From the NCBI RefSeq assembly GCF_056712565.1, contig NZ_CM160072.1: a stretch of 64,000 nucleotides of DNA. One strand, written 5' to 3'. Below the pieces are notes generated by a model. It was not told where the DNA came from. It did not search any database and saw nothing but the letters and a program-made list of their open reading frames with translations. Position 1 is the first letter of the stretch. Each line of letters begins with the position of its first letter. This document shows positions 13,190-20,688 of this stretch, piece by piece. Made by a program: the position numbers and the translations under genes.

Positions 13190-13678
13190 TCATGAATATA
13201 TATTCAATTTTAATAAGTAATTAATTTGCTTGTGCACCAGGGCTGTACGCTTTACCACACGTGGTGCGACCCAAACGATATTGCTGCCAGCAATCACGCC
13301 AAGAATTTCTGGCAAAGCATGGAAATCAAGGATTCGTGCTACTGCCCGACCATATCCGGCGACGGTATGGATAAGGATAAATTCACCATTATGCTCGACA
13401 CTCAGGACCATTTCAGCGACGGATCGACCTGCGTCAGGTGTGGGAAGTAATTGAGGATTCACCGAATAAATTTTTTGTCCTTTTGTATTTCTAATTTTTA
13501 TGACTCCCAGCAATTTCAGTAGTCGTGAAACGGTTGACTGACTGATACTGTCAAAGCCATGGTTTTGCAAATCGCGGCGGATTTCCTCCTGTGAAAGATA
13601 ACTTTTTTCGGTAATCAGGCGCTGACAGACCGCCAGTTGCTTCTTTTCTTTGGCGGAGTAATCATCGTATTCCTTCAT
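13190..13678 (-). CDS. ArgR-family transcriptional regulator, candidate ADI-cluster regulator
   Basis: 162 aa from MKEYDD (RBS aaaggtg upstream); winged-helix N-domain (SQSTVSRLLKLLG) and ArgR-like C-terminal oligomerisation domain. Confidence 0.75.
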   Translation of the reverse strand: MKEYDDYSAKEKKQLAVCQRLITEKSYLSQEEIRRDLQNHGFDSISQSTVSRLLKLLGVIKIRNTKGQKIYSVNPQLLPTPDAGRSVAEMVLSVEHNGEFILIHTVAGYGRAVARILDFHALPEILGVIAGSNIVWVAPRVVKRTALVHKQINYLLKLNIYS

Positions 13679-13793
13679 AATGCACCTTTTATTTATTATT
13701 ACCTGATGATATTTTTCACATTTTATAATGTGAGAGTGGTTCATTTATCACTACACCAGATTTGAAGGCCGCTTTGATAAGCGGCCTGTCGCG

Positions 13794-15197
13794 TTAAATC
13801 ATCGCGGCGATACTCAGCACAATCATATTCAACATCGTGAGAATCAGCAGTAGCGGTGCTACCCATCTCAGATAACGGACCCAGGGTACACGGGCAATCG
13901 CCAGACCGCCCATCACTACCGCAGAGGTTGGCGTAATCAAATTAACCACCCCGGAAGCAGACTGATAAGCGGTCACCACCAGATCGCGTTGTACATGAGC
14001 AAAATCAGCGAGTGGAGCCATTATTGGCATCGTTAACACTGCAAGGCCGGAAGATGAGGGAACCAGAAAAGAGAGCAATACTTCCAGCCAATAGGTCACG
14101 TTGATGAAAACAGTGGTGGAAAGCCCTGAAACCAGATTCTCAGCACTGTGCAGAATTGTGTGCGTAATCATGCCGTTATCCATCACGACCACAATACCGC
14201 GGGCGATGCCGATAATCAGTGCCACACCAAGGAGATCCCGCGCGCCGTCAATAAAGGTACTGGTGAAGGTTTCTTCGCCCATGCGGGCAATGACACCCAC
14301 GATGACCGCAGCTGCCAGAAAGACAGCAGAGATTTCCGCCATCCACCAACCCAGTACCGCTACGCCGTAAATCATAAAGGCAAAGGATGCAGCAAAAAGT
14401 ATCAGGATCGCTTTGCGCGTGGGGGTAAATTCCAGCATCGTTTCTGAACGATTTCCCAGAAAATGCGCCTGGTTTTCAGCCATCTTATCCGCCACGATAG
14501 AGCTTTCCGGACTGTTGCGAACTTTGCGGGCATAACGCATAACCCAGTAAACACAAATCACGTAGCCTACTAACAGCAAAATAACACGCAGCAAAATGCC
14601 CTGAGTAAAGGGGATCCCTGCGGCGTTGGCAGCAATGACGGTAGCAAATGGGTTAATGGTTGAGCCCAGCGTGCCAATGCCCGATCCCAATAACACTGTG
14701 GCGGCAGCGACCAGAGGATCAAAGCGGGCAGCCATCATGACGGGCACCAGCAACGTGTAGAAGGGGAGTGATTCTTCCGCCATCCCATAAATAGTACCGC
14801 CAGCAGCGAAGAGCGCCATCAGGATCGGAATCATCCACTCTTCCCGACCATTAAGGCGAGTTGTCACTCGTTCGATACCGGCATCTATTGCTCCGGTTTT
14901 ATTTACTACTCCCAAAAATCCACCGATGATCAGGACAAACAGCGCGACATCAATCGCTCCCGCAGTGTAGGTTTGATGGTTGTACAAGCCGTCGATGGGC
15001 GCTAACAGGACAGCCGTAATACCCTGTGGTTGCGCCTCAACAGGTGCGTAAGTGCCTGCAACAGGAACTTCCTTTCCCAGTGCGGCATTTGTCACCATCT
15101 GATATTTTCCCGCAGGTACAATCCAGGTCATTGCCGCAACTAACGCAATCAGCACGAACAAGATGGTATAAGCGGTGGGAAATTTGAATTTACCCAT
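13794..15197 (-). CDS. YfcC-family polytopic membrane transporter, candidate arginine/ornithine exchanger
   Basis: 467 aa from MGKFKF (RBS ggag); many hydrophobic helices; sits between arcB-like and argR-like genes. Confidence 0.7.
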   Translation of the reverse strand: MGKFKFPTAYTILFVLIALVAAMTWIVPAGKYQMVTNAALGKEVPVAGTYAPVEAQPQGITAVLLAPIDGLYNHQTYTAGAIDVALFVLIIGGFLGVVNKTGAIDAGIERVTTRLNGREEWMIPILMALFAAGGTIYGMAEESLPFYTLLVPVMMAARFDPLVAAATVLLGSGIGTLGSTINPFATVIAANAAGIPFTQGILLRVILLLVGYVICVYWVMRYARKVRNSPESSIVADKMAENQAHFLGNRSETMLEFTPTRKAILILFAASFAFMIYGVAVLGWWMAEISAVFLAAAVIVGVIARMGEETFTSTFIDGARDLLGVALIIGIARGIVVVMDNGMITHTILHSAENLVSGLSTTVFINVTYWLEVLLSFLVPSSSGLAVLTMPIMAPLADFAHVQRDLVVTAYQSASGVVNLITPTSAVVMGGLAIARVPWVRYLRWVAPLLLILTMLNMIVLSIAAMI

Positions 15198-15253
15198 AAT
15201 GTGATCTCCATAATCACGGGCATACGCCACTCGTCGACGCATGCCCGTCAGGG

Positions 15254-16258
15254 TTAGTCGCCGAGAGTTGCTACCATCACCGCTTTAATGGTGTGCATCC
15301 GGTTTTCTGCTTCATCGAAAACAATGGAGTGGGCAGATTCAAAAACCTCATCAGTTACTTCCAGTCCTTTGAGGCCGTAGGCCATCTCGATCTCGCGTCC
15401 TACTGTGGTGTGCTCATTATGGAAGGCGGGCAGGCAGTGCATAAATTTGACTTCAGGGTTACGCGTGGCAGTAATCACCTGTTGATTGATCTGATAAGGT
15501 GTCATAAGACTCACTCGTTCTGCCCAGGCTTCTTTTGGCTCTCCCATCGAAACCCAAACATCCGTATAGAGAAAATCAACGTCGTATACGCCTTCTTCCA
15601 CATCCTCTGTCAGGGTGATTCTCGCCCCAGTCACGCTGGCGATCTCACGGCATTGTGTTACCAGCGCTTCATCTGGCCAGAAAGATTTTGGTGCCACCAG
15701 ACGGATATCCATCCCCATTTTTGCAGCACCAACCATCAGCGAGTTCCCCATGTTATTTCGGGCATCACCAAGATACGCAAAGCTCAGCTCTGGCAGCGTT
15801 TTGCCTGGCGCATGTTCCAGCATGGTCATTAAATCCGCGAGGATCTGTGTCGGGTGAAATTCATTGGTCAGTCCGTTCCATACCGGAACACCAGCGAACT
15901 CACCTAATTCTTCAACGATATTCTGACCATAACCGCGATACTCAATACCGTCATACATGCGTCCGAGTACGCGAGCGGTATCTTTCATTGATTCTTTATG
16001 GCCGATTTGTGAGCCGCTGGGGCCGATGTAAGTCACCTGCGCACCTTGATCAAAGGCCGCGACTTCAAAGGCACAGCGGGTACGGGTAGAGGATTTTTCA
16101 AAAATCAACGCAATGTTTTTACCGACCAGCGTTTGTTTTTCGTTTCCAGATTTCTTGGCGGCTTTAAGATTGATAGCCAAATCAATCAGGTATTGAATCT
16201 CTGCTGGGGTGTAATCAAGCAGCTTAAGAAAATTACGGTTTTTCAGTGAAGTAGCCAT
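15254..16258 (-). CDS. arcB: ornithine carbamoyltransferase (catabolic, ADI pathway)
   Basis: 334 aa from MATSLK; STRTR and HCLPA motifs; paralog of argI five kb away. Confidence 0.85.
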
Positions 16259-16268
16259 GGGGATGTCC

Positions 16269-19121: not shown

Positions 19122-19574
19122 ATGATTGTTGGCAACATCCATCACTTACAATCCTGGCTGCCGGAAGAACTTCGCGAAGCAATTGAGTACATCAAATCAC
19201 ATGTCAGCGATGAGACAGCAAAAGGTAAGCACGCTATTGACGGCGACCGCCTGTTTTATCTGATTTCTGAGGATACGACTGAACCAGGTGAACTGCGTCG
19301 TGCTGAGTATCATGCTCGTTATCTCGATATCCAGATTGTATTAAAAGGGCAGGAAGGGATGACATTTAGCACGCAACCAGCAGGCGTACCAGAGACTGAC
19401 TGGCTGGCAGATAAAGATATTGCTTTTATCGGGCAGGGGATCGATGAAAAAACAGTGATTCTTAATGAAGGGGATTTTGTCGTTTTCTATCCTGGCGAAG
19501 TTCACAAACCGCTTTGTGCGGTGGGAGCCCCCGCTCAGGTACGGAAAGCAGTAGTTAAGCTATTAAAATCGTAA
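19122..19574 (+). CDS. tabA: YhcH/YjgK/YiaL-family protein (biofilm-associated TabA)
   Basis: 150 aa starting [27 protein letters not shown]. Confidence 0.85.
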
Positions 19575-19619
19575 GTGATCACTGCCGGGGGGCGACCTGT
19601 GCCGCCGCCCGGCAAAACG

Positions 19620-20624
19620 TTATTTTGCTAATGTAGCGACCATAACAGCTTTTATGGTGTGCATCCGGTTTTCTGCCTGGTCAAAGACAATACTTGCCGG
19701 AGATTCAAAGACTTCATCGGTGACTTCCATTCCACCATACAGACCGAATTCTGCGGCCATTTTTTTACCCAGCGTGGTTTGCTCATCATGAAATGCAGGC
19801 AGACAGTGGAGGAACTTAACCTGCGAATTACCGGTCAGGGCCATCATTTTGCTATTCACCTGATAGTCACGCAGCAGGGCAATACGCTCCGCCCATTTCT
19901 CTTTGGGCTCACCCATCGATACCCAGACATCGGTATAGATAAAGTCTGCACCTTTAACCCCAGAGGCGATATCTTCCGTCAAGGTGATTTTACCCCCGTG
20001 TTTTTGTGCCAGAGCACTGCATTCGGCGACCAGCGCAGCTTCCGGCCAGCATGCCTGTGGCGCGACCAGACGCAAATCCAGACCGGTAAGCGCCGCAGCT
20101 TCGAGCATCGAATTGCCCATGTTGTTACGCGCGTCACCTGCATAGACCAGCGTCATTTCGTTGAATGCTTTGCCGGGCAAATGCTCCTGCATGGTGAGGA
20201 GATCCGCCAGCAGCTGCGTGGGGTGGAACTCATTGGTCAGGCCGTTCCATACTGGCACGCCAGCGTATTCCGCCAGTGTTTCGACAATCTCCTGACCATA
20301 GCCGCGATACTGAATACCGTCATACATGCGACCAAGCACGCGGGCAGTGTCTTTAATCGACTCTTTGTGACCAATCTGGCTGCCGCTTGGGCCGAGATAA
20401 GTAACGCGAGCACCCTGGTCATATGCGGCAACTTCGAAAGAGCATCGGGTACGGGTCGAGTCTTTTTCGAAGATGAGCGCGATGTTTTTGCCAGTGAGTC
20501 TGGCTTCTTCTTTACCGCTTTTCTTATCGGCTTTCAGCTTCGCGGCTAACTGCAACAAGCTGTTGAGTTCAGCTGGCGTGAAATCGAGTAATTTCAGGAA
20601 ATGCTTATGATAAAACCCGGACAT
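19620..20624 (-). CDS. argI: ornithine carbamoyltransferase (anabolic)
   Basis: 334 aa from [20 protein letters not shown] and HCLPA motifs; ARG boxes upstream. Confidence 0.93.
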
Positions 20625-20649
20625 AGATCCCTCCTGTGGCCAACGCCTT

Positions 20650-20688
20650 AATGAATTAAAATTCAATCTATATGGATGATTATTCATT
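20650..20688 (-). promoter_or_regulatory. argI operator: two tandem ARG boxes 3 bp apart
   Basis: aatgaattaaaattcaat and tatggatgattattcatt match the TNTGAAT-N4-ATTCANW consensus. Confidence 0.8.

Follow-up and report, generated by a model that had tools for sequence, protein, structure and literature searches.

How does a single chromosomal locus keep arginine synthesis and arginine breakdown apart when it encodes an ornithine carbamoyltransferase (OTC) for each of them, together with a second regulator of the ArgR family? This question is raised by a stretch of 64,000 nucleotides from contig NZ_CM160072.1 (NCBI RefSeq assembly GCF_056712565.1), hereafter the window, in which genes of the arginine deiminase (ADI) pathway lie next to argI. 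The original prediction, made from the letters of the window, read the arc genes as an island that had brought its own ArgR paralog, and proposed that cross-binding of the two regulators would couple both pathways, a futile cycle having to be avoided. In this study, the gene content, ancestry and predicted control of the locus were investigated. With a probability of about 0.75, we read the locus as an ancestral enterobacterial ADI module with a RosE-type regulator, driven by CRP and kept apart from synthesis mainly by ArgR with arginine and by catabolite and redox control.

Genes were identified from our own family scans (NCBIfam and Pfam) and from the RefSeq annotation of an identical chromosome, and both sources agreed. 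The window belongs to an Escherichia coli chromosome, and an 8-kb query taken from it (12900-20900) is 100% identical to many genomes of the extraintestinal pathogenic (ExPEC) and avian pathogenic types. On the minus strand, the run between 13190 and 18444 comprises arcA for arginine deiminase (17224-18444; NF002381, 615.5 bits against a cut-off of 414, and the Pfam ADI domain), arcC for carbamate kinase (16269-17213; NF009008, 513.6 bits against 361), the arc-linked OTC (15254-16258; NF003286, 543.8 bits against 515), a membrane transporter of the YfcC/DcuC family (13794-15197; PF03606 at 4.9e-115) and an ArgR-family paralog of 162 amino acids (13190-13678). The deiminase, the OTC and the carbamate kinase that make up an ADI cluster are thus encoded together. 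Next come tabA and then argI (19620-20624, minus strand), which encodes the anabolic OTC (NF009213, 770.8 bits). The two OTC genes of the original prediction were found where it had placed them, both with the OTCace_N and OTCace domains, and the ArgR-family gene that it had noticed alongside the arc genes is likewise real, with both Arg_repressor Pfam domains.

The two OTCs share 69% identity. A neighbour-joining tree rooted on PyrB was built from seven ArgI proteins, seven arc-linked OTCs, the Vibrio vulnificus OTC, Pseudomonas aeruginosa ArcB and other solved OTCs. The seven ArgI proteins formed one clade (93% support) and the seven arc-linked OTCs a separate one (66% support, rising to 99% without the seventh genus), with the V. 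vulnificus OTC as sister to the latter (78%); the structure of this sister was reportedly deposited as 'anabolic', while the PDB table names it only ornithine carbamoyltransferase. P. aeruginosa ArcB grouped with two other solved OTCs in a P. aeruginosa/Psychrobacter clade (91% support), and the arc-linked OTC fell outside it. The phylogeny suggested for deciding whether this OTC is of the catabolic type therefore gave a divided answer, as the enzyme is not within the ArgI clade but is not within the catabolic clade of P. aeruginosa either. At the position of P. aeruginosa Glu105, glutamate was observed in all seven arc-linked OTCs and glutamine in all seven ArgI proteins. The arginines R28 and R32 of the P. 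aeruginosa dodecamer are replaced by Ile and Ala in the E. coli arc-linked OTC and are not conserved in the other genera. Previous work has shown that the P. aeruginosa enzyme loses its cooperativity for carbamoyl phosphate when Glu105 is mutated, that a glutamate put into E. coli OTC gave no cooperativity, making the residue necessary and not sufficient, and that R28 and R32 underlie the dodecamer (PMC9506655). Judged by its sequence, the arc-linked OTC is an old paralog with one catabolic-type marker and not an enzyme of the P. aeruginosa type, and its operon context points to a catabolic role. That the gene encodes a further anabolic isoenzyme, comparable to argF of K-12, is highly improbable, since it is flanked by arcC and the exchanger in every case, in seven genera as well as on plasmids, carries the glutamate that no ArgI has, forms a clade apart from ArgI, and belongs to an operon whose deletion abolishes an arginine-dependent phenotype in E. 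coli Nissle (PMC10659395); the features that would suit such an isoenzyme are the 69% identity to ArgI, a score that nearly reaches the cut-off of the ArgI-type NCBIfam subfamily (556 against 559), the V. vulnificus OTC as closest solved structure and the missing R28 and R32.

A futile cycle between the two OTCs, as had been feared, does not arise from these enzymes by themselves, because both catalyze one reversible reaction. The wasteful loops would instead be formed by ADI with ArgG/ArgH and by carbamate kinase with CarAB, and the genes concerned (arg and car) are already repressed by ArgR with arginine.

With regard to the origin of the block, the complete 8-kb arrangement was detected in 596 of 5426 complete E. 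coli genomes (11%), in agreement with a published frequency of the E. coli arc operon that is said to be about 11.6%. In a pangenome study, arcA, argR_2, argI_1 and tabA_2 co-occurred in 90% of pks-positive as against 7% of pks-negative E. coli (PMC8545132). The order rraB-argI-yjgK-arcA-arcC-OTC-transporter-regulator-pyrL-pyrB-pyrI-ridA, read on contigs encoding relatives of the regulator, was also observed in Salmonella, Kosakonia, Enterobacter, Cronobacter, Buttiauxella and one further genus. At the nucleotide level, the arc genes of E. coli and Salmonella are 77-82% identical and their argI, pyrB and rraB genes 81-85% identical, so that the divergence of the arc genes matches that of the flanking genes. 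No integrase, insertion sequence (IS), other mobility gene or tRNA is annotated in the block in the RefSeq annotation of the identical chromosome, and its coding GC content (0.46-0.53) is similar to that of the flanks. In K-12, yjgH-bdcA-bdcR occupy the place of the arc genes and yjgL lies between tabA and argI; yjgL was found neither in this window nor in the other genera. K-12 also harbors a relic, a broken copy of the last codons of the regulator with the overlapping ARG box. Taken together, the shared slot across the family, the flank-like divergence and GC content, the relic and the lack of mobility genes and tRNA indicate that the block is ancestral and was replaced in K-12-like E. coli, and the designation as an island is not supported in its usual sense.

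A related arc module, with 74.6% nucleotide identity to the chromosomal copy, is carried by 248 mostly IncF plasmids. One of these, the IncF plasmid pJIE186-2 (2300-8500), holds the module in full, including its regulator, its complete control region and a 5' stub of yjgK. Such low identity suggests that the plasmid copy was mobilised from another enterobacterial chromosome and is not the source of the chromosomal one. The alleles around the arc genes are themselves unusual, as the arc-positive haplotype shares 74% nucleotide identity with K-12 in tabA, 90% in argI, 93% in yjgM and 62% in yjgN, while the neighbours pyrB, rraB and valS are 96-98% identical; both tabA alleles, arc-positive and K-12, are equally far from the outgroups. 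The divergent haplotype (19122-23262) reaches beyond the arc genes. A horizontally acquired islet that put the arc genes and their regulator beside argI in E. coli by chance would agree with these divergent tabA, argI and yjgN alleles, with the presence of the block in only 11% of genomes, with the mobility of its relatives on plasmids and with the published name, a ~5-kb arc 'islet' common to Salmonella and uropathogenic E. coli (PMC2328253). It is nevertheless very unlikely, given that gene order and position are the same in seven genera, that divergence and GC content equal those of the flanks, that neither integrase, IS nor tRNA is annotated, that K-12 retains the 3' end of the paralog as a relic, and that the plasmid copy is too distant to be the donor.

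The ancestral module includes its own regulator, which was examined for what it may bind and sense. The paralog harbors both the N-terminal winged-helix domain (PF01316, 52 bits against a cut-off of 27) and the C-terminal oligomerisation domain (PF02863, 50.4 bits against 25) and matches solved ArgR structures at E = 4.6e-22. It is 33-36% identical to E. coli ArgR and scores below the ArgR equivalog cut-offs (NF003457, 110.8 against 194; TIGR01529, 101.5 against 130.45). Its identity to the syntenic Salmonella STM4463/RosE is 86%, which makes it the ortholog of this protein, and relatives of the regulator occur widely among Enterobacteriaceae. Of the ArgR recognition helix, residues Q43, S44, V46, S47 and R48 are invariant in the paralog alignment, with a K-to-T change within the same helix, and binding to ARG-box DNA is predicted from these conserved residues. 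E. coli ArgR contacts L-arginine through Gln106, Asp113, Thr124, Ala126, Asp128, Asp129 and Thr130, of which Asp128 pairs with the guanidinium of the ligand (PMC2880562). At the same positions, the eight family members aligned all display Arg, Asp, Val, Ala, Ser, Asn or Ser, and Ile; five of the seven contacts are thus changed, including Asp128 and Asp129, and GDD has become GSN. As the loss of Asp128 makes canonical arginine sensing unlikely, the paralog is probably not a canonical L-arginine sensor. What had been called a second ArgR-type input is therefore ArgR-like in its domains and DNA-reading residues, but neither in its arginine contacts nor in its equivalog score. Purified RosE of Salmonella binds stdA upstream DNA in an electrophoretic mobility shift assay, whose description does not mention arginine, and RosE represses std (PMC2328253). 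In Citrobacter rodentium (8753-9480 of its locus), a deletion runs from arcA into the transporter gene, taking arcC and the OTC with it, and the regulator stands alone between yjgK and pyrL. This lone copy displays substitutions at otherwise conserved positions of the C-domain (GYGRAVARILD to GYGCAVASILN), which is consistent with a regulator whose role is tied to the arc genes. Going by its title as cited in PMC11172107, Choi 2012 reports that expression of the STM4467 ADI is controlled by STM4463.

On the side of synthesis, sites were scored against the ARG consensus WNTGAATWWWWATTCANW. The argI operator (20650-20688, minus strand), recognized by consensus match and conservation, consists of box 1, AATGAATAATCATCCATA (20688-20671, two mismatches), and box 2, ATTGAATTTTAATTCATT (20667-20650, no mismatch), separated by the 3-bp spacer TAG. 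Sites with at most one mismatch number two in the 64-kb window as against 0.05 expected, and the argI boxes are kept in nine enterobacterial sequences. E. coli ArgR sites are 18+3+18 pairs with spacers of 2-3 bp (PMC4381063), and the argI operator has precisely this canonical form, two 18-bp boxes at such a distance, so that the textbook pair of the original prediction was confirmed. Another ARG box, ATTGAATATATATTCATG (13191-13208, minus strand, one mismatch), is single and overlaps the stop codon of the paralog, about 45 bp upstream of the -35 element of pyrBI. Seven of the eight genera that carry the paralog keep it with no or one mismatch, and in K-12 it is broken; the stop codon falls within the box in most genera, with the right half-site outside the coding sequence. 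This box may link arginine catabolism with pyrimidine synthesis, or may prevent read-through into pyrLBI. Upstream of pyrL, the conserved AACCGTTTGC was considered as a PurR box and rejected, as only one half-site fits. In the intergenic region between transporter and paralog no ARG box was found, leaving autoregulation of the paralog from this spacer unsupported.

On the side of breakdown, the arcA-tabA intergenic region measures 677 bp, with about 30% GC in its middle, and the yjgK-arcA spacer is 663-677 bp long across seven genera. Since K-12 keeps only about 70 bp beside tabA, roughly 18448-19060 belongs to arc. The elements of this control region, all given on the minus strand, were obtained by consensus matching in aligned scans over the seven genera, expressed as mean mismatches and z scores. 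Closest to arcA is a predicted class II CRP-dependent promoter (18541-18583), made up of the putative CRP site TGTGAAAGTCGTCACA (18583-18568) and the -10 element AATCAT (18546-18541). The CRP core TGTGA-N6-TCACA averages 0.86 mismatches (z = -7.4), and the conserved -10 pattern A.T.AT lies about 41 bp downstream of the centre of the site, as placed for a class II promoter. Farther upstream, two ARG-like boxes were recognized, box J, TTTGCGTATTAATGCATT (18660-18677; mean 3.4 mismatches, z = -4.2), in which TGCGTA-N3-AT.CA is kept in the six genera that have no indel there, and box G, TTCGCATAGATATGCAAT (18776-18793; 3.1 mismatches, z = -4.4). Two direct repeats are ArcA-like, repeat 2, AAACAATCAATTAACA (18700-18715), with 1.14 mismatches on average to TAACA-N6-TAACA (z = -6.2), and repeat 1, TGTTGTACTGATGTTA (18992-19007), with 1.0 to TGTTA-N6-TGTTA (z = -6.4). 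These matches suggest binding at the CRP, ArcA-like and ARG-like elements. No conserved FNR-type site was detected upstream of arcA, where the best aligned match averages 2.9 mismatches.

The palindrome TATGCA-N8-GCATAA (18956-18975) is invariant in the seven genera and in the plasmid copy, is located some 430 bp ahead of the predicted start of arcA and is absent upstream of K-12 tabA. Its reading as the junction of tandem ARG boxes (TATGCA-N7-TGCATA, N8-GCATAA across genera) was rejected, as the outer half-sites fit poorly and lack conservation. The plasmid-borne module keeps all control blocks, with its two ARG-like boxes weakened to 2-3 mismatches, and the retention of these blocks together with the regulator suggests that both move as one unit. 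Near the start of tabA, the inverted motif TTAAAACAATGTTTCA (19092-19107) is kept in all genera and in K-12, and probably belongs to the control of tabA, not of arc.

Can the two regulators then cross-talk? The retained recognition-helix residues and the conserved ARG-like boxes upstream of arcA make such cross-talk conceivable at the level of DNA. The paralog could bind the argI operator or mix with ArgR in hexamers, or ArgR could bind the arc control region, and synthesis and breakdown would be reciprocally coupled. Q43, S44, V46, S47 and R48 are identical in both proteins, a near-consensus ARG box lies at the stop codon of the paralog in addition to the boxes upstream of arcA, and there are precedents in the ArgR1/AhrC heterohexamers and the arc-specific ArgR2 of Streptococcus pneumoniae and Lactococcus lactis (PMC4278536) and in the ArgR-activated arc operons of Vibrio fluvialis (PMC11172107). 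The arcA side, however, lacks paired operators of the kind that E. coli ArgR uses (PMC4381063), as boxes J and G are single, imperfect and 116 bp apart, and the box at 13191-13208 is single too. Moreover, the paralog is only 33-36% identical to ArgR, with the K-to-T change inside the recognition helix, and K-12, which has no paralog, represses argI by ArgR alone. We therefore regard reciprocal coupling as a doubtful proposition. A related thought deserves still less credence, namely that the paralog is an arginine-blind derivative of ArgR, maybe responsive to citrulline, that would coordinate PyrBI, the arc-linked OTC and ArgI through the arcA boxes and the stop-codon box. Niersbach 1998 reportedly found that the D128N change in ArgR switches its ligand preference to citrulline, which serves here as a lead only. 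If the paralog did act in this way, Enterobacteriaceae would possess a local carbamoyl-phosphate regulon, with a paralog sharing ARG-like DNA specificity with ArgR.

The explanation we prefer, an ancestral CRP-driven module, can be set out as follows. The locus would be an enterobacterial ADI module of arcA, arcC, OTC and a YfcC/ArcE-type exchanger, with an ArgR-family regulator of its own that is orthologous to STM4463/RosE; this module would be situated in a family-wide slot between tabA-argI and pyrLBI, kept by a minority of E. coli, mainly pks-positive ExPEC lineages, and replaced in K-12-like strains. Its two OTCs would be old paralogs, with ArgI serving synthesis; ArgR with arginine represses argI at the paired ARG boxes. 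Together with ADI and carbamate kinase, the arc-linked OTC would convert arginine into ornithine, ammonia, CO2 and ATP, as expected from the operon context. Transcription of arcA would most likely start from the class II CRP-dependent promoter and would probably be modulated by the ArcA-like repeats and the two single imperfect ARG-like boxes farther upstream, to which the RosE-type paralog, and possibly ArgR, would bind. The paralog would read ARG-like DNA and, having lost the acidic arginine pocket, would probably not be switched by L-arginine as ArgR is. Anabolic and catabolic fluxes would then be separated mainly by the repression of arg and car by ArgR with arginine, plus catabolite and redox control of arc, and no special interaction between the two regulators would be needed. 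The ADI function itself has been demonstrated in E. coli Nissle (PMC10659395).

Several observations weigh against this explanation. The divergent tabA (74%) and argI (90%) alleles indicate that descent inside E. coli was not simply vertical, and one haplotype was probably exchanged through homologous recombination with a divergent lineage. The promoter, CRP, ArcA and ARG-like assignments come only from consensus matching and conservation. With respect to the predicted start, boxes J and G are situated some 135 and 250 bp upstream, and a weak sigma-70-like match overlaps each of them, so that they could be repressor sites of distal promoters. Finally, since the arc-linked OTC is without the dodecamer arginines, its catabolic direction would not be enforced in the known way.

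All genes from arcA through pyrI share one orientation, and the flank on the pyrI side consists of mgtA on the plus strand, followed by ridA, pyrI, pyrB (12027-12962) and pyrL, all on the minus strand. On the other side, tabA/yjgK (DUF386; 19122-19574, plus strand, from the family scans) is divergent from arcA, and rraB (plus strand) lies beyond argI. Within 8.6 kb (12027-20624) there are thus three paralogous carbamoyltransferase genes, namely pyrB, argI and that of the arc-linked OTC, in a neighbourhood kept across Enterobacteriaceae. The transporter scores below the cut-off of the NCBIfam YfcC model for a 'putative basic amino acid antiporter' (286 against 500) and is probably an arginine/ornithine exchanger of the ArcE type, a concept introduced elsewhere (PMC5300872). 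In Buttiauxella, an APC-family amino-acid permease (7376-8845 of its locus) sits in the slot of the YfcC/DcuC transporter, the rest of the cluster being identical; this swap is a non-orthologous replacement and argues for an equivalent role of the transporter in this slot. After the transporter gene, a GC-rich hairpin read from the letters (13767-13786, minus strand) is a possible terminator between the arc operon and the paralog, and it lacks conservation in the other genera. Scanning 12000-22000 against Rfam gave zero matches.

The system has already been described in Salmonella and E. coli, and the points made here are increments, not a new kind of system. Billard-Pomares 2019 reportedly described the E. 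coli arc operon of ExPEC. The locus resembles STM4463-STM4467 of Salmonella Typhimurium, which matches it in all five genes, in their order and in the slot between yjgK-argI and pyrLBI, with protein identities of 86-95%; the Salmonella control region, at 674 bp, agrees with that of E. coli in length and conserved blocks. Std fimbriae are the target of RosE in Salmonella (PMC2328253), and its E. coli ortholog is known here from sequence. The operon is the same chromosomal one as in ExPEC and Nissle 1917 (Liu et al., PMC10659395), a study with no mention of ArgR, FNR or a repressor, and the plasmid version, at 74.6% nucleotide identity, is of a different lineage. For the modelling of enterobacterial arginine catabolism, our data add as refinements a regulator whose arginine pocket appears lost, a module that is ancestral and not foreign, and conserved CRP, ArcA-like and ARG-like sites, in a system with effects on pH, fitness in the gut and traits related to virulence in ExPEC, E. 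coli Nissle and Salmonella (PMC10659395, PMC2328253).

The paralog agrees with E. coli ArgR in its two Pfam domains and in its recognition-helix residues, and the argI operator displays the canonical pair; the paralog differs in having R, D, V, A, S, N and I at Q106, D113, T124, A126, D128, D129 and T130, in falling below the equivalog cut-off and in facing single boxes on the arc side. The arcDABC system of P. aeruginosa (OTC structures PDB 1DXH and 1ORT) serves the same pathway, and its OTC shares the glutamate at 105. Unlike in that system, the order here is arcA-arcC-OTC-transporter, the transporter is of an unrelated family, the OTC belongs to another clade without R28 and R32, and a conserved FNR/ANR-type site is missing. 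In Lactobacillales, where ArgR1/AhrC heterohexamers and the arc-specific activator ArgR2 have been described (PMC4278536), an extra ArgR-family protein is likewise dedicated to the arc genes and encoded with them, although these ArgR paralogs belong to a distant lineage.

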